A stretch of 39,432 bases of DNA from a virus (lineage: Duplodnaviria > Heunggongvirae > Uroviricota > Caudoviricetes), in IMG/VR virus record IMGVR_UViG_2706794693_000007. The stretch is one strand, 5' to 3'. Below, piece by piece: positions 1,751 to 39,432 of this stretch. How positions within the stretch are numbered: position 1 is the stretch's first letter; the number at the start of each line of letters is the position of its first letter. Below the pieces are notes generated by a model that was given only the letters and a program-made list of their open reading frames with translations, had not been told where the DNA came from and did not search any database. The position numbers were made by a program, and so were the translations under genes.

Positions 1751-2253
1751 GTGCAGGATGTGAGCTGTTTTTCGAAGACAGAATAAGCGGTAAGACAAGG
1801 GAGCGTCCCGGACTTAAACGCGCATTAAAGCGACTCCGGCCAGGGGATACCCTGCTGGTCTGGAAACTGGATCGCCTTGGACGCAGTATGCAGCACCTTG
1901 TCCTTTTAACAGAAGAACTCCGGCAACGCGGCGTTAACTTCCGCAGCATTACGGACAATATTGATACATCCACTCCCATGGGACGTTTCTTTTTCCATAT
2001 AATGGGCGCGCTGGCGGAAATGGAGCGGGAACTCATTATTGAACGTACACGCGCGGGTCTTGCTGCTGCCCGTGCTCAGGGGCGTCATGGCGGCAGACCT
2101 CAGAAACTGACAGAGAAAGAGCGGGAGCAAATCGCCCGTTTGCTGGCTAATGGCGAGTCCCGTAAACAAATCGCACTGATATTTGATATTGGCCTTTCCA
2201 CCCTTTATCGTTATTTTCCTGCCTCACCAGCTCCGTCACCAAAAGTACCGTGA
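1751..2253 (+). CDS. gin: Serine DNA invertase of the Gin/Hin/Cin/Pin family, N-terminal ~24 codons lost in the N-run
   Basis: Translation AGCELFFEDRISGKTRERPGLKRALKRLRPGDTLLVWKLDRLGRSMQHLV...MGRFFFHIMGALAEMERELIIERT...GGRPQKLT closely matches the Gin/Hin resolvase-type catalytic core and C-terminal HTH. Confidence 0.9.
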
Positions 2254-2338
2254 CGCTTTTTTGAATTTCCGCAAAACACATATTTTTCAGCGGTCGCTAT
2301 TCTGACTCTGTTTAATTCAGAAACAGGCAGAAAAGACG

Positions 2339-4393
2339 ATGTCAGACTCCAAGTGGAAAATGCTCTCCGCCATGCCCGGAGAGTTTTCAGTCAAGGTTGC
2401 CGGTGGCACGGTGGCATTTATTGAAAGCCCTTTCCGCCCTTCGGGTAATAAAGGGGGGATCACCTTCGCAGACTGCGTGATCCGCTTCAGCACGAAAGAG
2501 CCATTATGGGTAATGCCGGTATCCGGTAATCCCAGTGCAGAAATCACCAGTTCAGGCGTGACTGGCATCATTCCAATCACATCTGACGTGGCCGGAACGC
2601 TCACGCCCTCCGACTGGAATGCACCGGATAACGCCGGGCCTTCCGGTAGCACGAATGGCAGCAGTTCAGAGCCGGAATATTACTTTGTTGTCATTCTCGC
2701 GGGTCAGTCAAATGGCATGGCCTACGGCGAGGGGCTGCCGTTACCGGATTCGTTTGACCGCCCGGACCCACGCATTAAGCAACTGGCACGCCGCAGTACG
2801 GTAACGCCCAACGGTACGTCGTGTACATACAACGACATCATTCCGGCAGACCACTGCCTGCATGATGTTCAGGATATGAGCGGGATAAACCACCCGAAAG
2901 CTGATCTGGCAAAAGGCCAGTACGGGACTGTCGGTCAGGGGTTGCATATTGCCAAAAAACTGCTTCCCTATATCCCACAGAATGCCGGGATACTTCTGGT
3001 GCCCTGTTGTCGTGGCGGGTCAGCATTCACCACTGGAGCCGACGGCTCATTCAGTGAGGCCAGCGGTGCTTCCGCTGATTCTTCACGCTGGGGGGCCGGT
3101 AAACCTCTGTATCAGGACCTGGTAAGCCGCACCAAAGTCGCGCTGGCGAAAAACCCGAAAAACAAACTTCTGGCTGTGGTCTGGATGCAGGGAGAGGCAG
3201 ACCTTGCCTCAGGAAGCCAGCAGCATAATAGTTTATTCACGGCCATGGTTCAGCAGTTCAGAACTGACCTGGCTCCGCTTGCTGCGCAGTGCGTGAGTGG
3301 AAATGCCACCACGGTGCCGTGGATTTGCGGTGATACCACGTATTACTGGAAAAACGCTGGCACCGATAAATATGAGGCAGTATACGGTGGCTACAAAGGC
3401 AAGGAAGCACAGAAAATTTTCTTTGTACCGTTCCTGACGGATGAGAATGGACAGAGCACGCCAACGAATGCTCCGGCGGAAGACCCGGATATTGTGGCTG
3501 TCGGGTATTACGGTGCAGCATCCCGAACCCAGGGCAGTTTTGTTTCGACACAGCGTGACAGCCATTTCAGCTCATGGGCACGCAGGGGCGTCATTTCAGA
3601 CCGTCTGGCCTCAGCTATTATGCTCCATGCAGGGCGCACGGCTGAACTGATGCGTGGGCAGACCGTGACACCACCGGATGAGAAGCCGTCACCTGATACA
3701 CCATCAAAACCGTCCACGCCACCCGCAGACACCACGACGATGAGTACGCTATTTGCTTACCGGGCATCTGAGTCTGAAGGACGGTTGACACCACAGGGTT
3801 GGGCTGCCGGAGGTGGCAAGGCTCAAATCGTGGATGATGCCGGAGCCAGCGGGGGTAAGGCAATGAAACTGACCAAGGAAACAGGAAGAGCCCCCTGGTA
3901 CCTTGAGCATGATGCTGGTAATGGTGCGGACCTGCTGGGTAAAGGTGGTCTTGTCAGTTGTCGTTTTAAACTCGATGGCGCGCTTACGGCTAATCAGTAC
4001 GCACTGGCGCTGTACTGGCCGGTTTCTGCCCTGCCGCAAGGGGTTACTCTGGAAGGAAATGCCGGTCATAACCTGCTGGCATCGTTCTACGTACAGAGCG
4101 ATGCCACAGACCTTAACGTGATGTATCACAAAGGAAACACGGCGCAGAACACGAAGCTGGGGTCATTCGGCGCATTTAATAACGAATGGCATACGCTGGG
4201 CTTCCGTTTTGCCGGTAACAACAGTATTGAGGTGACGCCGGTCATTGATGGTAAGGACGGGACACCATTCATGCTGTCGCAGTCTCCGGTCGGCACGTTT
4301 ACGGCAGACAAGTTGCGCGTGACCGATATCACTAAAAATGCGACTTACCCGGTACTGATTGACAGTATCGTGGTGGAAGTGAATAACGCGTAA
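2339..4393 (+). CDS. SASA-family (sialate O-acetylesterase-like, NanS-p-like) SGNH hydrolase with N-terminal domain, Pro/Thr-rich linker and C-terminal lectin-like domain
   Basis: 684 aa; motifs YYFVVILAGQSNGMAYGEG (GQSN block) and AVVWMQGEADL (WxQGE(S/A)D block); candidate Asp/His at RDSHFS; linker TPPDEKPSPDTPSKPSTPPADTTT; start codon uncertain (weak RBS). Confidence 0.6.
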   Translation: MSDSKWKMLSAMPGEFSVKVAGGTVAFIESPFRPSGNKGGITFADCVIRFSTKEPLWVMPVSGNPSAEITSSGVTGIIPITSDVAGTLTPSDWNAPDNAGPSGSTNGSSSEPEYYFVVILAGQSNGMAYGEGLPLPDSFDRPDPRIKQLARRSTVTPNGTSCTYNDIIPADHCLHDVQDMSGINHPKADLAKGQYGTVGQGLHIAKKLLPYIPQNAGILLVPCCRGGSAFTTGADGSFSEASGASADSSRWGAGKPLYQDLVSRTKVALAKNPKNKLLAVVWMQGEADLASGSQQHNSLFTAMVQQFRTDLAPLAAQCVSGNATTVPWICGDTTYYWKNAGTDKYEAVYGGYKGKEAQKIFFVPFLTDENGQSTPTNAPAEDPDIVAVGYYGAASRTQGSFVSTQRDSHFSSWARRGVISDRLASAIMLHAGRTAELMRGQTVTPPDEKPSPDTPSKPSTPPADTTTMSTLFAYRASESEGRLTPQGWAAGGGKAQIVDDAGASGGKAMKLTKETGRAPWYLEHDAGNGADLLGKGGLVSCRFKLDGALTANQYALALYWPVSALPQGVTLEGNAGHNLLASFYVQSDATDLNVMYHKGNTAQNTKLGSFGAFNNEWHTLGFRFAGNNSIEVTPVIDGKDGTPFMLSQSPVGTFTADKLRVTDITKNATYPVLIDSIVVEVNNA

Positions 4394-4400
4394 GCAGGAT

Positions 4401-4442
4401 AAAAAAATGCCGCCGGTAAGGGAAAACAAGAAACCGGCGGCA
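4401..4442 (-). terminator. Candidate intrinsic terminator, oriented for the minus strand
   Basis: 9-bp GC-rich stem GCCGCCGGT/ACCGGCGGC with 15-nt loop; run of 7 T follows on the minus strand, only an A-rich tract on the plus strand. Confidence 0.4.
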
Positions 4443-4537
4443 AAAAGATCGTTATATCCAAAGCAAAAAATGCAGTGCACCTTTTTACCTAACAGATATT
4501 ACCGGTGTCAACACCATGTCAATAATTGGGAGGGATA

Positions 4538-4720
4538 ATGACATTTTTACAGCTTATTTTATTGTATTTCTGCACGGCAGTATGTGCGTTATATCTGGTG
4601 AGTGGTGGTTATAAGGCCATCAGAAATTATGTTCGCCGCAAAATTGAGGACGCAGCAGCTGAAAAACTCAGTAAAACAGCGCAGGTAACTCCGCTCCCAA
4701 AAGACCCGACCCAGCCCTGA
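4538..4720 (+). CDS. Small membrane protein (60 aa, one N-terminal TM helix, charged C-terminus), function unknown
   Basis: RBS GGGAGGG 3 nt before ATG at 4538; MTFLQLILLYFCTAVCALYLVSGGYKAIRNY... hydrophobic N-terminus. Confidence 0.5.
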   Translation: MTFLQLILLYFCTAVCALYLVSGGYKAIRNYVRRKIEDAAAEKLSKTAQVTPLPKDPTQP

Positions 4721-4755
4721 TTGCAGGGCTTTATTCCCGCATAAGGAGGATATAC

Positions 4756-5010
4756 ATGCCAGAAATTAAAGGCACCGTCACTGAAGACCTGGTAAAACAG
4801 GCACTGTATTCCGGTGAAGTAAATAAGTTGCTGAAAGCGCAGGTCCGCAAGGATTTTGAGGCACAAATCGACACTTACGTTGATGAAGTGCTGGCAAAAC
4901 TTATTGGGCCAGCAGTTGCGGCCAGTGATGCTGATAATGAGCCGAAAACCGACGCGCAGCCAGAGCAACCAGACCCGGCTCAGCCCGGAACTGACAGTAC
5001 CATGATGTAA
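4756..5010 (+). CDS. Hypothetical 84-aa acidic protein
   Basis: Strong RBS TAAGGAGG 7 nt before ATG; coding-like composition; hairpins downstream. Confidence 0.6.
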   Translation: MPEIKGTVTEDLVKQALYSGEVNKLLKAQVRKDFEAQIDTYVDEVLAKLIGPAVAASDADNEPKTDAQPEQPDPAQPGTDSTMM

Positions 5011-5177
5011 CAATACAAACCGGTGGTGTCCTCTGCCGGTTTGACACTAATGAAAACATCTTTGCCGCTATCCAGCCATATGTAATCGCTGGATAGTATT
5101 TCGTATTCAGAAATATAGCTGCTTATGGAGCAGTCAATCCTGCTTCCCCATCCGGGCAGGCAAATGAACCGGTATCA

Positions 5178-5471
5178 TTAGTCCGATTCACGCTTTTGTA
5201 GAATCGTTCCCAGAATGCTATACAGCTCATTAGCCTGTTGCTCCATCATTGAGACGGAGGCTATACGGTGCAAAGTGATTTCAGGAGGTGGCACACCTCC
5301 ATCTTCTTGCTGTGGAGGAAAAACATAAGATTTAATAAAAAAGTTGAAGCATATGAACTCTCCCGCACTCGAACTGTATTTGCAGGCATCTGAATAATCG
5401 GAAAAATAATCATTATAGATTTCCGCATTTTCAATCATTTTTCGATTTCTCGTCGTTACATGATTGTCCAT
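5178..5471 (-). CDS. Hypothetical 97-aa protein, convergent with the 84-aa gene
   Basis: RBS AAGAGG before ATG at 5471; AT-rich ORF with no recognisable motif. Confidence 0.5.
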   Translation of the reverse strand: MDNHVTTRNRKMIENAEIYNDYFSDYSDACKYSSSAGEFICFNFFIKSYVFPPQQEDGGVPPPEITLHRIASVSMMEQQANELYSILGTILQKRESD

Positions 5472-5594
5472 AGCAGCCTCTTACGCTGGCAATTAACCAA
5501 TTGACTTCTATAAATTAGTTGATTTGTTTGCTTTGCGGTATTCAAATGTACAATCATTCAGCACTTATGCGTTACAGCACCGTTTAAAATTAGT

Positions 5595-5680
5595 GATCAA
5601 ACTCATAAATTTTCGCTAATGACATTTCGTGTTATTTGTTGTATCAATTAAATAAATCAAATCGATCGTTTTTGTCGATC
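5595..5680. promoter_or_regulatory. Upstream regulatory region of com-mom with three GATC (Dam) sites
   Basis: GATC at 5595-5598, 5664-5667, 5677-5680, the last two inside near-direct repeats TCGATCG; Mu mom is known to be controlled through upstream Dam sites. Confidence 0.4.
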
Positions 5681-5727
5681 GATTGAGTGATAAAGATATC
5701 AACAACAAAGCAGGAGGTTATGCGGCC

Positions 5728-5928
5728 ATGTATCGAAACATACGGTGCCGACATTGTAACAAGCTACTGGCACGAGCCAGCTTCAGTTATCTGGAAGTTA
5801 AATGTCCGCGCTGTAAAACCCTCAATCAAATCACATCTCAGAGCGCCACAGAGCACCCCACATACACAAGGAAATCCTGTCGTGGGGAACAGAAAGCAAG
5901 TTACATCCCGTATCATCAGCACGCCTGA
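5728..5928 (+). CDS. com: Com-like zinc-finger translational activator of mom
   Basis: 66 aa; AGGAGG RBS 10 nt upstream; [14 protein letters not shown]...[10 protein letters not shown] with CxxC...CxxC; immediately precedes and overlaps mom as in Mu. Confidence 0.75.
5856..5887 (+). promoter_or_regulatory. Stem-loop sequestering the putative mom start codon (candidate Com target)
   Basis: CCCCAC (5856-5861) pairs with GTGGGG (5882-5887); the 20-nt loop contains AAGGA; GTG at 5882 is in the mom frame. Confidence 0.45.
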
Positions 5929-6619
5929 ACTTATTCACTATAACGACAATATCGTCGGTTATGGCTCCCGTGAGTTACGGGTTGAGACAATAAGTTGCTG
6001 GCTGGCCCGGCTGGTCGTCGTCAATAAACATTACAGCCATCGTTTCGTAAATAATTCCTACCTTCATCTGGGCATATTTTCAGAACGGGAGCTGGTTGGC
6101 GTAATGCAATGGGGTTATGCCCTTAATCCAAACAATGGTGCACGCGTCGTAACTGGCACGCAGAACCGCGAATATATGGAGCTTAACCGGTTATGGCTGC
6201 ATGACTGTATGCCGAGAAACTCCGAATCAAGGGCAATCAGTTACGCGCTCAAACTAATCAGACAACTTTATCCGCAGGTGCAGTGGGTTCAGTCGTTTGC
6301 AGATGAGCGTTGTGGCTGTCTTGGTGTCGTGTACCAGGCAAGCAATTTTGATTATGTAGGCAGTCATGAAACAACATTCTATGAACTTGATGGCGAGTGG
6401 TATCACGAGATTTGCAAGAATGCAATCAAACGAGGAGGACAGCGAGGTGAACATCTGCGGGCTAATATCGACAGAGCCAGTGTTCATAAATTCCGTCAGT
6501 TTCGTTACATCCGGTTTCTGGACAAGAGAGCCAGAAAACGCCTTAACACAAAGCTATTCAAAGTCCAGCCTTACCCAAAACCACAAACAGTTAAAACTGG
6601 TTTGAAAGAGAGTGAATGA
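5882..6619 (+). CDS. mom: Mom-like DNA adenine modification protein; start assigned to GTG 5882, uncertain
   Basis: Long ORF in the frame overlapping the 3' end of com; com-mom architecture, size about 245 aa; no ATG between com and residue ~130 so a non-ATG start is required. Confidence 0.65.
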
Positions 6620-6664
6620 ACGCTTAAAAACTCATTCTAAAACTCAAAAGAAAAGCGCCGATTT

Positions 6665-6681
6665 AGTATCAAATAAGTTGC
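6665..6681 (+). repeat. Prophage end-like repeat (GTATCAAATAAGTTGCG) just downstream of mom
   Basis: 17-nt near-match to GTATCAAATGAGTTGCC at 38755-38771 and to repeats at 38817 and 38902; preceded by GCCGATTT as at 38767. Confidence 0.45.
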
Positions 6682-6691
6682 GTATCGGCGT

Positions 6692-6893
6692 NNNNNNNNN
6701 NNNNNNNNNNNNNNNNNNNNNNNNNNNNNNNNNNNNNNNNNNNNNNNNNNNNNNNNNNNNNNNNNNNNNNNNNNNNNNNNNNNNNNNNNNNNNNNNNNNN
6801 NNNNNNNNNNNNNNNNNNNNNNNNNNNNNNNNNNNNNNNNNNNNNNNNNNNNNNNNNNNNNNNNNNNNNNNNNNNNNNNNNNNNNNNNNNNNN
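6692..6893. other. Run of 202 N (unresolved or masked)
   Basis: N characters in sequence. Confidence 0.95.
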
Positions 6894-7275
6894 TCGCCAG
6901 GGCATTAACGTCAGCGGGACCAAGACTGTTTTTTGTGGCAAGCGTCCCCAGACCAAGATAACCACGGGCCAGACGCTGGGCCTCCGCACCGGCATCAGCA
7001 ATTTCTTTCAGGTTATTTTTCCGGGAAAAGGCATTCGCAGCGATAATGGCTTTAATGGACAGCGTAAGCTGGTTTAACTGCGCCTTATCCGGCTGAATAC
7101 TGGCTTCAGCCAGAATATTCAGCAGTTCGGCCTGGAGAATATTCAGCCAGTCCTGACCAATCCAGCTGATACCTTTTTGTCCGTCACCTTCGGTAAACCA
7201 GGTGGTGGTATTACTCTGCGCCGGTGCCAGCGCAGGCATATTCGCCACGCCGGAATTATTATCAACATGAAACAT
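6894..7275 (-). CDS. Tail fibre protein, N-terminal constant part (Sc), 3' end runs into N-run
   Basis: ATG at 7275 overlapping upstream stop; MFHVDNNSGVANMPALAPAQ...[24 protein letters not shown]; last 71 nt identical to 1467-1537. Confidence 0.75.
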
Positions 7276-11066: not shown

Positions 11067-12408
11067 TGATCACCTCCACGCTGCGGCCACCCGGAACAAA
11101 AACCGGATCGGGGATATTGTTTCTGCGGACAAAATACTGCCAGCGACTGCTGTTGCCGGTGGCACGGTACAGCGTGACCAGTGCCGGTTCGGTGGTGCGA
11201 ACCATGACCTGAAAAGCACCGGGAAGATGCACGCTCCGTGTGGTTAAATCTTCTGTCAGCGCAAGCCCTGCATCACGTAATGCAAGGGCAGTCCCGGTAT
11301 AGCCCTGTGCGGACAGATCCAGCACCTGTTGTTCCATGGCATCGCTCAAATCCCGGTTGATACGCTGCACATCAGCAGAACTTTCCAGCCAGGCCAGTCC
11401 GCCCGAACGGTCAGTATCCTGAACGTGCGTCGTATTCTGCCGGATGACCTGATCCAGCAGTTTTCCGAGCGTCTGTGCCTGCGACACCAGGGTTGCACTC
11501 TGCATCACGCTCCGCAGCAGACGGATATTTTTCTGTGCCGCAGGCGTCAGGCCAATCAGGCGCTGTGGATCATCCTGTTCGCTGAGGGTGTAACGCAGGG
11601 AGGAAAGTGTGCGGTACAGCTGCGGCATGGCCTGCTCTGCCATGCTGTCACGGTTTGTGGTCAGGCTGCCGGACGGCGTTCCGGCTTTTCCGGTCAGAGA
11701 CAGGGAAGGATCGCCGGGCAGCCCGGTCAGCACGGCAAACATTCCGGCCAGCGATTCAGCCATGCGACGGGGCGCATTAATCAGGGCGGCGGCATTGCCT
11801 TTCAGGGCAGTAAAACTGGCCGTAAAGGCACTGATATCCTGCACAATCCCCATCCCCGAAACGGCATTCTCCAGTGCATCAATCTTATCGCTGATGGTGT
11901 CGGTCATGGCCTGTACATCATGCAGACCGTCTGAAATCACCGTCCAGCCGTCTGAAAGCGTGTTAAACAGCTGATTCATTGCTGAGCCGCTTTTCTGCTC
12001 CAGCGCAGCTGCCGTATCTTCTGCCACCGCAGGGGCGGTATCGTCACTGGCGGGGATCACGTTGATCGTGAACTCAACCGTTCCCTGCTCGCTGGCGTTA
12101 TAACGGCTTTCAAAGCTGTTTATCAGCACGTTTAACGTGCCGTAATCCGGGTGCATCAGTTCACCGGCACCGGGTGCACGCAGCGCATCACGCAGGCGGC
12201 TTCGCTGTGTCTGAAGATCGTCTCCGGTCACCAGAACCGTGAATGTGAACTCCGGGAGTTTTGGCCCCAGATCATCCGCACCGCCGCTTTCACGCAGTGG
12301 GTATTCACGGCGCACAATGTTACGTCCGCCCCGTTCCCGCTGCTCCTGATAAACCAGGAACGGTACGCCACGAAAGGAGCCACGCCCCGGCGTGTCAGTA
12401 GAGGCCAT
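11050..12408 (-). CDS. DNA circulation protein (Mu N-like tail protein)
   Basis: 452 aa, follows tape measure gene. Confidence 0.7.
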   Translation of the reverse strand: MASTDTPGRGSFRGVPFLVYQEQRERGGRNIVRREYPLRESGGADDLGPKLPEFTFTVLVTGDDLQTQRSRLRDALRAPGAGELMHPDYGTLNVLINSFESRYNASEQGTVEFTINVIPASDDTAPAVAEDTAAALEQKSGSAMNQLFNTLSDGWTVISDGLHDVQAMTDTISDKIDALENAVSGMGIVQDISAFTASFTALKGNAAALINAPRRMAESLAGMFAVLTGLPGDPSLSLTGKAGTPSGSLTTNRDSMAEQAMPQLYRTLSSLRYTLSEQDDPQRLIGLTPAAQKNIRLLRSVMQSATLVSQAQTLGKLLDQVIRQNTTHVQDTDRSGGLAWLESSADVQRINRDLSDAMEQQVLDLSAQGYTGTALALRDAGLALTEDLTTRSVHLPGAFQVMVRTTEPALVTLYRATGNSSRWQYFVRRNNIPDPVFVPGGRSVEVISEQQD

Positions 12409-14452
12409 AGTTCCCTCCGTTCCAGACGTTCACATCCAGGCCATGCTGTGCGGTATCATCCACATCAATACTGCGCGCCCGCCAGCCTTCAGGGGCAACA
12501 AGCTCCACCCGTGCGGCGGTTTTCGCGGTGGCCTGTCCGCCGTTTTCGTCACTGCCGCCACGCAGTTTCTGCCAGGCCTGCGTCAGCCAGCCCCCCAGAT
12601 AATCACCGAGATAGCTGCCCACCGTGGAACCAATGGCAACCCCGACCGGACCGGCAGCCGCCCCCAGCGCGCCACCGGCGATACTTCCGGCAAGGGAACC
12701 CACGGCACCGGCTTTATCGGCTGCACTGGCGCTGCTGTCCAGCAGTACAGGAGCCGCCATGGCACCGGCCCACAGGGCACCACCACCCAGCCGACCGGCA
12801 CCACGGAACAGCCCGGCAAAACGCCCCAGCCCCATGCGGTTTCCGGCCGCCGTTAGCAGACCACCGGCACGGCTCATCATACGACCGAAGAAGCCCTGTT
12901 TACCGGCACTCTCCGCCAGTTGCTCACCGGCAGTCACGACGGTCGTGACACCCCGTCCACGTCCGGGGCCGCGTTTTTTACGGCCGCGCACGGTTTTGCC
13001 GTCACCGCTGACCACCACATCCCCGCCACCTGAGGCCAGGCCACCCGCAGGCCAATTGGTGACCAGCACGGGCTGAACGGCAGCCGGATTTACCCCGGTA
13101 AGGAAATTCAGGAACCGGCCAGCGCGTCCGGGCTGCGTTCCCGGTACAGTGGTCTGCGGTTTGCGGAAGGGCGACGTCAGCACGGAGGTCATCGCCATGC
13201 CATAGCGTAAGGGGGTTGCGCCGAGACGTAATGCCCCCGTCCCCGCAAACCTGAGCACCTTCAGCGCACGGGAGGCGAGATACATATACATCAGGTACTT
13301 TGCGGCGGTCTGCGCACCCTGACCAATGCGATCCAGCGCATCGCCATAACCGGCGTCGCGCAGTGCCTGAAGCGTTTCCCTGACTTTCTGAATGACCCGG
13401 TAAAAGCCGGTCGCAGCGTCTCTGGCATACTCAAATCCCTGATTCAGGGCTGAGGCCGTCTGTGTGGCCAGCTTATCCTGTAAGCCGCTTTTCTGTGCCG
13501 CATCAGCATAATCCAGAAAGCCTTTCAGGCTCTTTTTCAGGCTGTCAAACGGTCCCTTTGCCATCACCTCGCGGGCAAATCCGTCCCAGACATCGCCCAT
13601 CATGGACGTCATTCCCGTCCAGGAATTCATGGCGTTTTTCTGGGCACCTTTTGCCTGTTCGGCCATCACCTGAAATAACAGGCGAATGCTGTCCGGTCCC
13701 AGTTTTCCTTTCTCGCCTTTCTCACGGATGATCTTCTGGTTTACACCCAGCTTATCGGCCAGCAACTGGTAAACGTTAATCCCGTATCCGGTCAGAATAT
13801 TGGCGTCCGCTGCCTGGATACTCTGGCGGGCAAACATCTGTTTGAGTTGCAGGGACGCACCCTGTGCATCTGACAGTGACCAGCCGTGATAGCCGCCCTG
13901 ATCCTGAAGCATGGTAATAAAGCGACGGGCTTCCCTGTCACTCATACCGAACCCGCGACTGGAGGCGTATTCCTGCATAACCCCCGCCAGCCCCCAGGTG
14001 GTGTCTTTGGCGTTCTGTACCGCCCAGGCTTTCACTGCTTCCGTTTTTGCCGTATCGCCATGATTAATGGCGTTGAGACGCAGAATATAGTTCTCCATCT
14101 CTGCGGCCGGGCGGATAAAGGCTTTATTAAACCCGTAGACCGCAGCCCCTCCCGCCAGCATCCCGTAAAGGTTGCTTATCCGCCCGATGGTGCCGGTAAT
14201 GCTGCCCTGAAGGCGGTCAAAATCTGACGTCACCGTGCGGATACTGCCACGAACACCGGCAAGCGTTCGCTGCATACGGGAGCCGACAAGTTCTGTCTCC
14301 TGACCGGCACGACGTGCTGCATTTCCAAGACCACCCAGCCCCGTCCTGCCGGAACGGGAGAATGCCCCCAGCTCCTGTGACCACTGGCGGGATTTGGCAG
14401 AAATATTGCCGAGTAAATCGACAATCAGGGAGGCTTTCAGGTTTTTTGCCAT
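12395..14452 (-). CDS. Tail tape measure protein
   Basis: 685 aa, Gly/Ala-rich C-terminal half, position after tail tube/chaperone genes. Confidence 0.85.
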   Translation of the reverse strand: MAKNLKASLIVDLLGNISAKSRQWSQELGAFSRSGRTGLGGLGNAARRAGQETELVGSRMQRTLAGVRGSIRTVTSDFDRLQGSITGTIGRISNLYGMLAGGAAVYGFNKAFIRPAAEMENYILRLNAINHGDTAKTEAVKAWAVQNAKDTTWGLAGVMQEYASSRGFGMSDREARRFITMLQDQGGYHGWSLSDAQGASLQLKQMFARQSIQAADANILTGYGINVYQLLADKLGVNQKIIREKGEKGKLGPDSIRLLFQVMAEQAKGAQKNAMNSWTGMTSMMGDVWDGFAREVMAKGPFDSLKKSLKGFLDYADAAQKSGLQDKLATQTASALNQGFEYARDAATGFYRVIQKVRETLQALRDAGYGDALDRIGQGAQTAAKYLMYMYLASRALKVLRFAGTGALRLGATPLRYGMAMTSVLTSPFRKPQTTVPGTQPGRAGRFLNFLTGVNPAAVQPVLVTNWPAGGLASGGGDVVVSGDGKTVRGRKKRGPGRGRGVTTVVTAGEQLAESAGKQGFFGRMMSRAGGLLTAAGNRMGLGRFAGLFRGAGRLGGGALWAGAMAAPVLLDSSASAADKAGAVGSLAGSIAGGALGAAAGPVGVAIGSTVGSYLGDYLGGWLTQAWQKLRGGSDENGGQATAKTAARVELVAPEGWRARSIDVDDTAQHGLDVNVWNGGNYGLY

Positions 14453-14909: not shown

Positions 14910-15161
14910 NNNNNNNNNNNNNNNNNNNNNNNNNNNNNNNNNNNNNNNNNNNNNNNNNNNNNNNNNNNNNNNNNNNNNNNNNNNNNNNNNNNNNNNNNNN
15001 NNNNNNNNNNNNNNNNNNNNNNNNNNNNNNNNNNNNNNNNNNNNNNNNNNNNNNNNNNNNNNNNNNNNNNNNNNNNNNNNNNNNNNNNNNNNNNNNNNNN
15101 NNNNNNNNNNNNNNNNNNNNNNNNNNNNNNNNNNNNNNNNNNNNNNNNNNNNNNNNNNNNN
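14910..15161. other. Run of 252 N (unresolved or masked) spanning the end of the tail tube gene and the start of the chaperone gene
   Basis: N characters in sequence. Confidence 0.95.
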
Positions 15162-18617: not shown

Positions 18618-19565
18618 TTACAGATAATCCGCGACAACCAGCTCCAGCTTGCCCTTCATCTCGTTAGAGACTGTGGCGTTACCGTCTGCGAACAGCTCGC
18701 GCTCCAGCAGCTGCACCGCCTGTTTTTCCAGCGAGGTGGGGACAACAATATGGGTGGGTTTGATGCCGAGTTTGCGGCCACCGTCAGCCTTAAAGTCACG
18801 CATGGCTGACCAGCCGTGCCACAGCGCATCCAGCGTCAGCGGTGACTGCATCATGTAGGCCATCTGCCAGAAGCCGTAGCCCACATTGCGACGGGCGGAA
18901 GCACCGAACACAAACTCGTTATCAGTAAACGCACGGCCTTCATCGACTTTTGTCTGGGCAACCAGTTCGGCTTTGCGGCGATCCTGATAAATCAGCGGTT
19001 TTACCGCGCGGGAGCAGTCAAGCAGATACCAGGCCGGGCCGCTGTAATCCGCCTGTGCACCGACAGAGCCGGTTTTTGCCACAAACATATTGCTGACCAT
19101 CTGTGCATCACCGGAGCCATCCACTTTGGGGTAAACAGGGTGTTCGGTATCAAAGAAGTTCTGGCCGTCATAGCAGGCCGCATTCAGACCATCACGCAGT
19201 GCAGCAAAGACCAGTTCATCCGGTTGTGCCGCAGCGGCACGACCCATTTCCTGGAATAACGGGGAGTAGATGCCGAGATTGTCGTCTTCAAAGTCATCGC
19301 GGCTAATGGCAACGGTGCCTTCAAAGGTTTTGTTCACGATGGCGTAGCCATAGGCTTTCATCTTCTCGATGACGCGGGAGCCGATCCACTCACGGAACTG
19401 CGGGAACTGCCCCAGCCAGCCGTAGGTGTTGGATTTCGAGGTGGACGGCACGGTCATCGCAATTTTCTGGTACTGCGACGGAGCCATGGACATCCCGGCC
19501 TGAAAATCAGAACGGTAGCCCGTCATCAGGGCGGTGATCATCGCCGGTGTAATCGGGGTAGGCAT
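18618..19565 (-). CDS. Major head (capsid) subunit, Mu T-like
   Basis: 315 aa, follows protease/scaffold gene with overlapping stop/start. Confidence 0.85.
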   Translation of the reverse strand: MPTPITPAMITALMTGYRSDFQAGMSMAPSQYQKIAMTVPSTSKSNTYGWLGQFPQFREWIGSRVIEKMKAYGYAIVNKTFEGTVAISRDDFEDDNLGIYSPLFQEMGRAAAAQPDELVFAALRDGLNAACYDGQNFFDTEHPVYPKVDGSGDAQMVSNMFVAKTGSVGAQADYSGPAWYLLDCSRAVKPLIYQDRRKAELVAQTKVDEGRAFTDNEFVFGASARRNVGYGFWQMAYMMQSPLTLDALWHGWSAMRDFKADGGRKLGIKPTHIVVPTSLEKQAVQLLERELFADGNATVSNEMKGKLELVVADYL

Positions 19566-28931: not shown

Positions 28932-29354
28932 TCAGAAAAGCCGTGGCTGCGTGCGTTCCTGATGCAGGCGACGCTGGTTGCGGATAACGGAGTAAATCTG
29001 CGTCTCTGACATCTGGTAGTGGCGGCGCAGGGTTTCAATTTTTTCGCCCTGGCTCCAGCGGGAAAAAATTTCATTATTGCGCAGTTCGGTGAAAAGGGAT
29101 TCACCGACCGGGAGATAATAACCACGCCCGCCCATGTACCCGGCCTGTGCGGCTGCAACCTTACGGGCAAGCATTCCCGCCTGAGCAGGTTCAATCCCCT
29201 GACGGTGCAGTTCAGCACTGATCACATCAACCAGGTCCCGCAGCGTGCCGGGCCAGTTCTTTTTCAGCTCATCATCAGGAATATCATCCAGACGGTCAAT
29301 CAGCGCGTGCAGCTGTTCGCTGTCACCAAACATGCTCATCTGTGTTTCAGCCAT
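28932..29354 (-). CDS. Mor/C-family transcriptional activator of middle/late genes
   Basis: 140 aa; C-terminal HTH FSRWSQGEKIETLRRHYQMSETQIYSVIR; located between GemA-like gene and lysis genes. Confidence 0.75.
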   Translation of the reverse strand: MAETQMSMFGDSEQLHALIDRLDDIPDDELKKNWPGTLRDLVDVISAELHRQGIEPAQAGMLARKVAAAQAGYMGGRGYYLPVGESLFTELRNNEIFSRWSQGEKIETLRRHYQMSETQIYSVIRNQRRLHQERTQPRLF

Positions 29355-38913: not shown

Positions 38914-39237
38914 TCACCTGGTTATATGTCGCCAGTCGATACCTTCCAGCAGCATCGCCAGCTGCGCCTGTGTAAGGAACACTTTGCCATCACGGGCTGA
39001 CGGCCAGGCGAAGCGCCCACGCTCCAGCCGTTTGGTCAGGAGGCACAGTCCGTCACTGGTGGACCACAGCAGTTTAACCTGACTGCCGCTGCGGCCCCGG
39101 AAAATGAAAACATGGCCGGACATGGGATCGTCTTTCAGCGCCGTCTGTACTTTCGCAGCCAGGCCGTTGAAGCCATTTCTCATATCGGTGATACCGGCAA
39201 CCAGCCAAATTTTGATCCCGGAAGGTAACGGGATCAT
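38914..39237 (-). CDS. tnpB: IS66-family TnpB (Orf2), probably with altered C-terminus at the prophage junction
   Basis: MIPLPSGIKIWLVAGITDMRNGFNGLAAKVQ...LEGIDWR characteristic of IS66 Orf2; stop codon lies in the phage-end TTCA. Confidence 0.8.
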   Translation of the reverse strand: MIPLPSGIKIWLVAGITDMRNGFNGLAAKVQTALKDDPMSGHVFIFRGRSGSQVKLLWSTSDGLCLLTKRLERGRFAWPSARDGKVFLTQAQLAMLLEGIDWRHITR

Positions 39238-39432
39238 CGCTTCAGTTCCTGTATCAGCAGAGTCAGGAGCTTTTCGCTGACATTGCCATTGAAGCGGAGC
39301 GTCCCGTGCCGGAACGTTACCTCACAGCTGATACTGAGGGTTTTCGGGTCCTCTGCGAGCGATTCTGGCTGTTCGGCAGCTGCATCGAGAGTCACAGGAA
39401 GTAGCTGGGGGCTCTCTGAAGAAGGTAATAGC
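38917..39432 (-). mobile_element. IS66-family insertion sequence fragment (tnpA-tnpB), lacking its transposase gene on this side
   Basis: IS66 orf1/orf2 pair with ATGA overlap; expected third gene replaced by prophage sequence. Confidence 0.7.
39234..39432 (-). CDS. tnpA: IS66-family TnpA (Orf1), 3' part only
   Basis: Open frame ending ...NGNVSEKLLTLLIQELKR with stop overlapping the tnpB start as ATGA. Confidence 0.6.
   Translation of the reverse strand, partial: LLPSSESPQLLPVTLDAAAEQPESLAEDPKTLSISCEVTFRHGTLRFNGNVSEKLLTLLIQELKR

Follow-up and report, generated by a model that had tools for sequence, protein, structure and literature searches.

NanS (YjhS), the chromosomal sialate O-acetylesterase of Escherichia coli, uses Ser19 and His301 for catalysis and Gln18 in the oxyanion hole, and has no catalytic Asp (PMC9063846). 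Shiga toxin (Stx) phages and other lambdoid prophages carry related enzymes known as NanS-p. Family activity has been established experimentally for NanS and several NanS-p proteins; the NanS-p enzymes de-O-acetylate Neu5,9Ac2 and mucin glycans, permit growth on these, and are thought to aid the growth of pathogenic E. coli on mucus sialic acids (PMC8065619). Described NanS-p proteins carry an N-terminal DUF1737 domain, and a DUF1378 gene follows nanS-p in lambdoid phages (PMC10462455). A 2026 preprint presented one NanS-p as a decoration on the capsid of an Stx phage: gp84 of phage phi24B is an abundant, self-processing virion protein, and its DUF1737 forms hexamers seated in the capsid hexons (bioRxiv 10.64898/2026.04.10.717836). 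The present analysis concerns a 39,432-nucleotide stretch of viral DNA, the IMG/VR record IMGVR_UViG_2706794693_000007 (hereafter the window, at its full length), in which a gene at 2339–4393 encodes an esterase of this type within a Mu-like prophage. We read the gene product as a sialate 9-O-acetylesterase of the NanS-p family, and its gene as accessory cargo of a transposable, Sp18-like prophage of the Mu type that carries it in its right-end region, with a probability of roughly 75%. The protein is already present in databases, annotated as 'DUF6645 domain-containing protein' or 'sialate O-acetylesterase'; its unusual aspects are the Mu-like host, a lineage-specific N-terminal domain (N-domain) and an apparent late promoter. 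Within an incomplete coverage of the literature, no paper was found that links NanS-p with Mu-like phages or describes an alternative N-terminus.

Catalytic and lectin-like domains of the esterase

The open reading frame (ORF) proposed by the original prediction at 2339–4393 was confirmed on the + strand, with an ATG start and a length of 684 amino acids (aa). The GQSN and WxQGE(S/A)D blocks named in the same prediction were located at aa 122–125 and aa 282–288 (WMQGEAD), and the proposed membership of the SASA/SGNH esterases was borne out by a PF03629 profile match of 51.3 bits against a gathering score of 24.8 (aa 117–312). A search of solved structures matched aa 110–428 to 3PT5, the E. coli 9-O-acetyl-N-acetylneuraminate esterase NanS/YjhS, with an E-value of 1.8e-117; the SASA/SGNH type II catalytic domain occupies 2669–3628 (aa 111–430). 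Gln123, Ser124 (codon 2708–2710) and His409 (codon 3563–3565, in RDSH) align to Gln18, Ser19 and His301 of NanS and to the 933W protein, and all three were invariant across 12 homologues. Block V reads R406-D407-S408-H409, with Asp407 at −2 and not at −3, and the DxxH pattern of SGNH hydrolases is therefore absent. The residue equivalent to Asp407 is Ala or Ser in 933W, in the natural locus L002 and in NanS. A Ser/His/Asp triad had been named in advance as the mark of a true family member; this test was mis-set because the prototype NanS has a Ser19–His301 dyad, and for the same reason the absence of a catalytic Asp does not argue against activity (PMC9063846).

The catalytic domain is followed by linker 2 (3629–3739, aa 431–467), which varies in length among homologues. 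The Pro/Thr-rich linker described earlier corresponds to the Pro/Thr/Ser-rich stretch PPDEKPSPDTPSKPSTPPADTTT within it, at approximately aa 445–467, and the equivalent linker is a reported autoproteolysis site in phi24B gp84 (bioRxiv 10.64898/2026.04.10.717836). The C-terminal part, described in the original prediction as beta-rich and lectin-like, comprises approximately 217 aa (aa 468–684; 3740–4393 with the stop codon) and corresponds to the solved jelly-roll of phi24B NanS-p. Residues 469–683 matched this C-terminal domain crystal structure (6YP6) with an E-value of 7e-98, while DUF6645 (PF20350) scored 226 bits over aa 533–650. Y510, Y515, Y540 and F611, proposed as the sugar site of the phi24B C-domain (PMC10462455), are all four conserved as Y554, Y559, Y584 and F654. 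The protein family phrog_143 covered aa 71–684. A full-length AlphaFold model from a 16-sequence alignment was unusable, with a mean predicted local distance difference test score (pLDDT) of 40.6; both known domains are covered by solved homologues. Because the structures match and the catalytic and sugar-site residues are conserved, the gene product can be assigned to the NanS-p family of sialate O-acetylesterases, with a predicted Ser-His dyad as in NanS. Hydrolysis of the O-acetyl groups of Neu5,9Ac2 and mucin by the window protein would be expected from its strong similarity to NanS and its 62–66% identity to assayed NanS-p alleles.

The N-terminal domain

The original prediction had also noted an extra N-terminal domain of about 110 aa. 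Its presence was borne out, but it is not the DUF1737 that is usual in the NanS-p family: DUF1737 (PF08410) gave no match in the window protein, and the N-terminus does not align with that of DUF1737-type proteins. In its place, aa 1–82 (2339–2584) are predicted to form a small all-beta barrel specific to the Mu lineage, followed by linker 1 (2585–2668, aa 83–110), which is rich in Ser, Gly, Pro and Asn and predicted to be disordered. The AlphaFold model of the N-domain, built from a six-sequence alignment, shows a six-stranded all-beta barrel at aa 7–79 (pLDDT approximately 70–89; predicted template modelling score 0.61), with aa 83–108 disordered at a pLDDT below 50. The close homologues fall into two classes, one of 678–691 aa with SASA and DUF6645 at 98–100% query coverage, and the other of approximately 647–650 aa with DUF1737, SASA and DUF6645, which is 84–91% identical beyond residue ~100 only. 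Precomputed Pfam lists placed PF08410 in the 647–650-aa class and not in the 678–691-aa class.

The N-domain belongs to no Pfam family, and a BFVD fold search gave nothing significant; the weak fold matches obtained were to small cupin/jelly-roll barrels, some of them sugar-related. Neither a paralogue nor a similarity to the N-terminus of the S protein was found among the window proteins. An exhaustive HMMER search of 1.84 billion representative proteins returned, besides fragments of the same protein, a single relative. The relative, a Salmonella enterica protein truncated by a contig end, shows 29% identity and an unchanged order of N-domain, Pro/Thr linker and SASA; its gene sits downstream of gin, with two small ORFs between, in a Mu-like prophage that is divergent. 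The N-domain retrieved only fragments in word-indexed homologue searches, and a scan of genome contigs with the N-domain alignment gave no match. The domain was found solely fused to these esterases. Within type 1, the N-domain type of the window, the ratio of nonsynonymous to synonymous substitution rates (dN/dS) was 0.035–0.044 for the N-domain, against 0.09–0.14 for SASA and 0.12–0.13 for the C-domain, while linker 1 (0.05–0.32) was more variable than the domains that flank it. The N-domain thus appears to be under strong purifying selection, stronger than that on the catalytic domain. The low dN/dS, the architecture kept in the Salmonella relative and the confidently modelled barrel with its disordered tether all argue that the N-domain is functional.

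Natural loci and distribution

Two N-domain types, approximately 60% identical to each other, occur in E. coli. Type 1 was found in 32 of 5426 complete E. coli genomes, and type 2 in 205 of the same 5426, carried by Sp18-like prophages of O157:H7 and other E. coli that produce Shiga toxin (STEC), for example as WP_010917876.1. A full-length intact ORF is present in approximately 235 of these complete genomes (~4%) and in thousands of assemblies. The exact protein sequence of the window occurs in thousands of assemblies at no fewer than nine insertion sites, including Shigella sonnei 53G. Every N-domain locus (41/41, the Salmonella relative included) was Mu-like, and the gene lies just downstream of the G-segment/gin region. 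The gene order was likewise the same in 41/41: baseplate, S, G segment, (gin), esterase, DUF1378, DUF826, com, and then mom or a C5 methylase gene. The location between gin and com/mom that had been proposed for the window gene is real (gin, 1751–2253; com/mom, 5728–6619). All 80 sampled DUF1737-type loci had lambdoid genes upstream. In most N-domain loci gin stands immediately upstream of the esterase gene, and in eight it is reduced to a 3′ remnant (L003, L012, L013, L017, L020 and L026–L028). These gin-deleted loci keep the esterase gene, its upstream dyad element and the G-segment genes. No 'empty site' relative in which gin directly adjoins com was found in E. coli.

One prophage in ypdB (L001 in E. 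coli DLI.5a; also L143 and L149) is heavily degraded, with the transposase truncated, the head and tail genes mostly deleted and gin frameshifted. In this degraded copy the esterase, DUF1378, DUF826, com and mom genes are still intact and 100% identical, and several genomes share the ypdB insertion. Three to four N-domain esterase copies stand at separate loci in E. coli JE86-ST05, AST198, TOE17 and OkiPb01696, which is consistent with recent transposition of these Mu-like prophages.

Exchange with lambdoid nanS-p cassettes

The suggestion that homologues occur in lambdoid prophages of pathogenic E. coli was supported by 349 phage records, mostly Stx phages. The description of the esterase gene as cargo was also upheld, but rather than standing as an insertion by itself, the gene belongs to a nanS-p/DUF1378/DUF826 cassette common to lambdoid late regions, where the order is Q, methylase, nanS-p, DUF1378, DUF826, holin and lysozyme. 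According to BLASTn, DNA homology of 87–88% to the lambdoid nanS-p loci runs from 2669–2671 (codon 111) to 4672, inside DUF1378. The left boundary of this homology falls exactly at the junction of the N-domain and the catalytic domain, and the protein alignment switches abruptly at residue ~110, just before a conserved EPEYY motif. Since the homology spans 2669–4672, the unit exchanged with lambdoid late regions comprises the catalytic and lectin domains together with part of DUF1378. On these alignments the N-domain belongs to the Mu-like backbone and stays in place during cassette exchange. Between L002 and L038, both of type 2, the N-domain is near-identical (dS 0.1) while SASA and the C-domain have diverged to saturation, which indicates that the payload has been swapped repeatedly behind a fixed N-module. 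The catalytic and lectin modules, together with DUF1378, are exchanged by homologous recombination with lambdoid nanS-p cassettes.

A reciprocal pair of hybrids was found within one genome. In the first, L060 (IMGVR_UViG_2617270962_000007), lambdoid Q, methylase, DUF1737 and SASA are followed by a C-domain, DUF1378, DUF826, com and mom that are 100% identical to the window. In the second, L013 (IMGVR_UViG_2617270962_000005), a Mu-like baseplate region leads to the N-domain and SASA, and then to a lambdoid-like C-domain and DUF1378. The pair bears the signature of homologous recombination between a lambdoid and a Mu-like prophage inside nanS-p, an event that would rearrange the chromosome.

A candidate late promoter

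A candidate late promoter dependent on a Mor/C-family activator lies upstream of the esterase gene, at 2257–2303 on the + strand. It consists of the 19-bp imperfect dyad TTTTTTG-AATTT-CCGCAAA (2257–2275), a 22-nt spacer and the −10-like hexamer TATTCT (2298–2303), and transcription is predicted to start near 2310. Comparison of upstream regions gave the shared element as a dyad, TTTnYTG-N5-CMGCAAA, followed 22–23 nt on by TAnnnT. On both strands of the whole window the element occurs three times: upstream of the lysozyme gene (28939→28921, − strand), where it comes right behind the Mor/C-family gene, upstream of the head protease I gene (20752→20734, − strand), with the same architecture of dyad and −10 hexamer, and upstream of the esterase gene. 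When a 17-base consensus was taken from the lys and I sites, the esterase site was the only other match in the window, even with three mismatches allowed, against 0.13 expected by chance. Two intact natural prophages have the identical three sites and no others. The element is kept upstream of the esterase gene in 40/40 loci, type 2 included, and the type-2 −10 hexamer, TATGAT, is better than that of type 1.

Late promoters of Mu lack a −35 element, and the dyad to which C binds has its centre at −43.5 (PMC2582627). The esterase, lys and I sites all show this geometry, with a −10 hexamer, no −35 element and an imperfect dyad whose centre lies at approximately −44/−45 if the −10 hexamer has its usual position. 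The phage has a single gene for a Mor/C-family activator, at 28932–29354, just upstream of lys. From the three shared sites and the Mu-like geometry we infer that the esterase gene is transcribed late, from a promoter of the lys/I class activated by this single protein, and the sites at lys and I probably mark what the late promoters are in the Sp18-like phage group. The specificity of the activator would differ from that of Mu C, because the Mu C-site is absent upstream of the late genes. The Mu C-site pattern TTAT-N6-ATAA had a single match in the window, no more than expected by chance and at no late promoter. A generic scan of 1751–6691 for sigma-70 promoters and terminators returned nothing above shuffled sequences. 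As no terminator separates the two genes, read-through from gin into the esterase gene is possible. Lambdoid nanS-p genes are expressed late and in a Q-dependent manner (PMC10462455; PMC8065619), which parallels the timing proposed here.

An inverted repeat, CTGAAT(T)...(A)ATTCAG, with its arms at 2266–2272 and 2318–2324, brackets the putative promoter and leader. It is conserved between types 1 and 2 despite an overall identity of approximately 69%, and could be an operator or an RNA hairpin.

Possible role of the esterase

Most likely, the enzyme would de-O-acetylate the sialic acids of mucin in the course of lytic growth or afterwards. The gene would be expressed late in lytic growth, and read-through from gin may add low expression in lysogens. 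Because no signal peptide is present, contact with the substrate would come with lysis or by way of the particle. The enzyme would then remove 9-O-acetyl groups from free and mucin-bound sialic acids, so that sialidases, and the Nan pathway of the lysogens that survive, could use the de-acetylated sugars. The original prediction had offered a lysogenic conversion factor or a virion-associated depolymerase as options, and the NanS-p literature holds the same two live hypotheses, namely benefit to the lysogen and association with the virion (PMC8065619; bioRxiv 10.64898/2026.04.10.717836). By analogy with phi24B, the barrel of the N-domain may be a virion-docking module on the Mu-like head or tail and a counterpart of DUF1737, which is possible though doubtful. 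Such an anchor fits a distinct and constrained N-module on a flexible tether, found in Mu-type phages only and with this payload only.

A soluble enzyme without any virion role carries similar weight to the anchor, and can be held tentatively. Released when part of the lysogens lyse, or leaking out after gin read-through, it would supply the survivors with de-acetylated sialic acid as a public good, and the N-domain, instead of binding virions, would act as a second module for carbohydrate binding, oligomerisation or stability that came along by chance with the Mu backbone. For lambdoid NanS-p a public good of this kind is the established model (PMC8065619), and the weak resemblance of the N-domain to cupin/jelly-roll barrels, some sugar-related, favours it. 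It has to contend with the demonstrated capsid-binding domain in the homologous position of phi24B NanS-p, with an N-domain that is more constrained than the enzyme and joined by a disordered tether of ~28 aa typical of an anchor-plus-payload design, and with the fact that the N-domain was never found without the esterase nor outside Mu-like phages. Several points weigh against a late-expressed esterase with a docking domain, and the soluble enzyme gains from some of them. The association of the N-domain with one phage type shows no virion role by itself, because physical linkage predicts the same. The capsid genes of type-1 and type-2 phages are approximately 92% identical, against 60% amino-acid identity of their N-domains, so that divergence of the N-domain does not track that of the capsid. 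The intact gene in the degraded ypdB prophage (L001; also L143/L149), which is incapable of making particles, is in keeping with a benefit to the host for which no virion is required. For the N-domain model, fold searches yielded no match that was informative. The activity and the substrate are read from homology, with the identity to NanS, about two-thirds, estimated from the alignment. The promoter is likewise read from a motif, which in the window scan matched neither the tail-gene promoter nor the com/mom promoter and therefore may not describe all late promoters.

An aid to adsorption is improbable. Here the N-domain would dock to the baseplate or fibre, and the esterase would strip acetyl groups from O-antigen, K-antigen or polysialic acid to expose a receptor, on the model of the SGNH tailspikes of other phages. 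The gene does directly follow the tail-fibre/G-segment/gin block, some proteins annotated as tail proteins contain SASA domains (phrog_25867 'tail protein', E-value 1e-6; an Arthrobacter phage minor tail protein), and a receptor-modifying role has been proposed for NanS-p (PMC8065619). However, the modules are ~85–90% identical to lambdoid NanS-p, for which host sialoglycans are the shown substrates (PMC8065619), the phi24B protein sits on the capsid and not on the tail, and the gene lies outside the tail operon, beyond gin and adjoining com/mom. No trimeric fibre-like or adaptor motif was seen either, nor, among the window proteins, any similarity to the N-terminus of S. A decaying, functionless remnant of an accidental recombination with a lambdoid prophage could account for the mosaic structure, with its evident inter-prophage recombination, and for the copies in degraded prophages. 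This explanation is effectively refuted by the conservation statistics: the intact full-length ORF in ~235 of 5426 complete E. coli genomes and thousands of assemblies, a dN/dS of 0.04–0.14 in all domains, and the invariant catalytic residues. The same architecture in a distant Salmonella Mu-like phage and the conserved promoter-like element upstream also speak against a remnant.

Neighbouring genes and prophage layout

Upstream of the esterase gene, a gin-type serine invertase gene at 1751–2253 on the + strand (Resolvase, 142.9 bits, with HTH_7) shows only its 3′ 503 nt, the 5′ end being masked by Ns at 1538–1750; identical natural loci have it annotated as 'recombinase family protein'. Downstream on the + strand, the cassette common to lambdoid phages continues with a gene for a DUF1378 small membrane protein at 4538–4720 (PF07125, 109 bits) and a second small gene, for a DUF826 protein, at 4756–5010 (PF05696, 58.7 bits). 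In lambdoid prophages DUF826 holds the equivalent position, upstream of the holin gene. The low-GC (~41%) spacer between DUF826 and com contains a 97-aa ORF antisense to the cassette (5178–5471, − strand), which gave no match in Pfam, PHROG, NCBIfam or PADLOC and is called 'hypothetical protein' in natural loci (86 aa in the RefSeq annotation). It is kept in type-1 loci, and other small ORFs take its place in type-2 loci. The right-end DNA-modification operon follows on the + strand, with com at 5728–5928 (PF10122) and mom at ~5882–6619 (PF25680), in agreement with the PGAP annotation of identical loci. The gin–com interval is approximately 3.4 kb in the window, compared with 94 bp in phage Mu. 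PADLOC found no defence-system match for the esterase or its neighbours.

Upstream of com, GATC sites cluster at 5655–5690 (AAATCGATCG...GTCGATCGATT) in a manner reminiscent of the region through which Dam and OxyR control Pmom in Mu (Mu: GATCGAATCAATTAAATCGATCGGTAATACAGATCGATT). In Mu the GATC cluster is followed by the C-site, which is not conserved in the window. In several natural loci (L002, at 11420–12472; L004–L006, L025, L031 and L037) Com is kept and Mom is replaced by a 350-aa C5 DNA cytosine methyltransferase, which is an alternative DNA-modification cargo in the same right-end position.

The first 72 nt of the prophage right end occupy 6620–6691 (+ strand), the remaining 56 nt being under the N-run at 6692–6893. 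The right-end sequence runs on as TTTTCAGCGG...CGCGCTATA in 15 natural loci and then diverges into differing host DNA. The rest of the window is a Mu-like prophage with genes for transposase, GemA, lysozyme, protease I, the gpT head protein (18618–19565) and the gp44–48 baseplate proteins. Relative to 6894–39432, the block at 1751–6691 (gin to mom with the 72 nt of right end) is inverted. The right-end block is collinear with the remaining phage in all 40+ natural relatives and in the intact HH35 prophage; the inverted arrangement is absent from these relatives and had no match among complete E. coli genomes: in none of the 5426 are mom and the right end both on the strand of the S gene and no more than 1.7 kb from it. 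Position 1 of the window is exactly the central TC of a gix site, TTATCGATAACG|TC|GGTTTACGGGAA; a 71-nt piece of the S gene is present twice (1467–1537 and 6894–6964), and both novel junctions are hidden by N-runs (1538–1750 and 6692–6893). Mis-assembly at the G-segment inverted repeats is the simplest reading, the alternative being a real but rare rearrangement; no source contig was recovered. A third N-run of 252 nt (14910–15161) lies around the tail assembly and tail tube genes. Because HH35 has 242 nt between the same flanks, the N-masks appear to be of approximately natural but not exact length. The left flank of the prophage (38927–39432) is an IS66-family insertion sequence (tnpA/tnpB), 99.6% identical to many copies, and the phage had therefore inserted into this element, which also explains why a short-read contig would stop at the left end.

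Significance of the locus

The analysis places the same enzyme-plus-lectin payload in Mu-type transposable prophages of STEC, Shigella and Salmonella, behind a different, constrained N-module and behind a putative promoter of the phage's own late class. The prediction that follows is that the N-module sets which particle or partner the enzyme attaches to. If the anchor is true, unrelated phage architectures would share an 'anchor plus swappable mucus-glycan enzyme' design, and in O157:H7, Shigella and Salmonella the particles of the Sp18-like Mu phages would be decorated with the esterase and act on gut mucus. If the N-module is no anchor, what is left is one more allele class, already annotated, of a known accessory gene. 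In addition, the shared nanS-p gene is a recombination substrate between unrelated prophages, which can shuffle cargo and rearrange chromosomes.

Comparison with known systems

The closest counterparts are the NanS-p proteins of Stx and other lambdoid prophages (933W L0105/z1466; phi24B vb_24B_21, i.e., gp84), in which SASA is likewise followed by the lectin-like DUF6645 domain. Identity is 62–66% to the 933W-type alleles and 84–91%, beyond residue ~100, to some non-Stx alleles. The catalytic and sugar-site residues are equal, genes for DUF1378 and DUF826 follow, and expression apparently accompanies that of the late genes. Unlike these proteins, the window protein has DUF1737 replaced by an unrelated beta-barrel of ~80 aa, with a longer linker. 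The host is a Mu-like transposable myovirus; the gene comes after gin and not after Q/stx, outside the interval between Q/stx and holin S that marks lambdoid nanS-p genes, and no holin gene follows. The putative promoter is of the Mor/C-activator type and not a Q-antiterminated pR′. The capsid-binding domain of phi24B gp84 is DUF1737, which the window protein lacks.

The chromosomal NanS (YjhS) of E. coli aligns end to end with the catalytic domain, including the GQSN and R-x-S-H blocks, and shares the SGNH type II fold and the Ser-His dyad without a catalytic Asp. NanS has one domain only, comprises ~326 aa and belongs to the nan regulon, whereas the window protein is phage-borne and adds the N-terminal barrel, two linkers and the lectin domain. 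The order of G segment, gin, (cargo), com, mom and right end in natural relatives is that of Mu/Sp18-like right ends. The type-2 allele of the gene (WP_010917876.1, N-domain 60% identical) is found in the Sp18-like prophages of O157:H7 and other STEC, and phage Mu, with its 94 bp between gin and com, has no esterase. Some relatives differ from the window by a C5 DNA methyltransferase in place of Mom. Should the Mu-type enzyme be borne on virions, it would have parallels in concept: acetylesterases displayed on virions and acting on surface or mucus glycans are known as HEF of influenza C virus, as HE of coronaviruses and as SGNH tailspikes such as gp63.1 of phage G7C, where they are attachment or receptor-destroying proteins.

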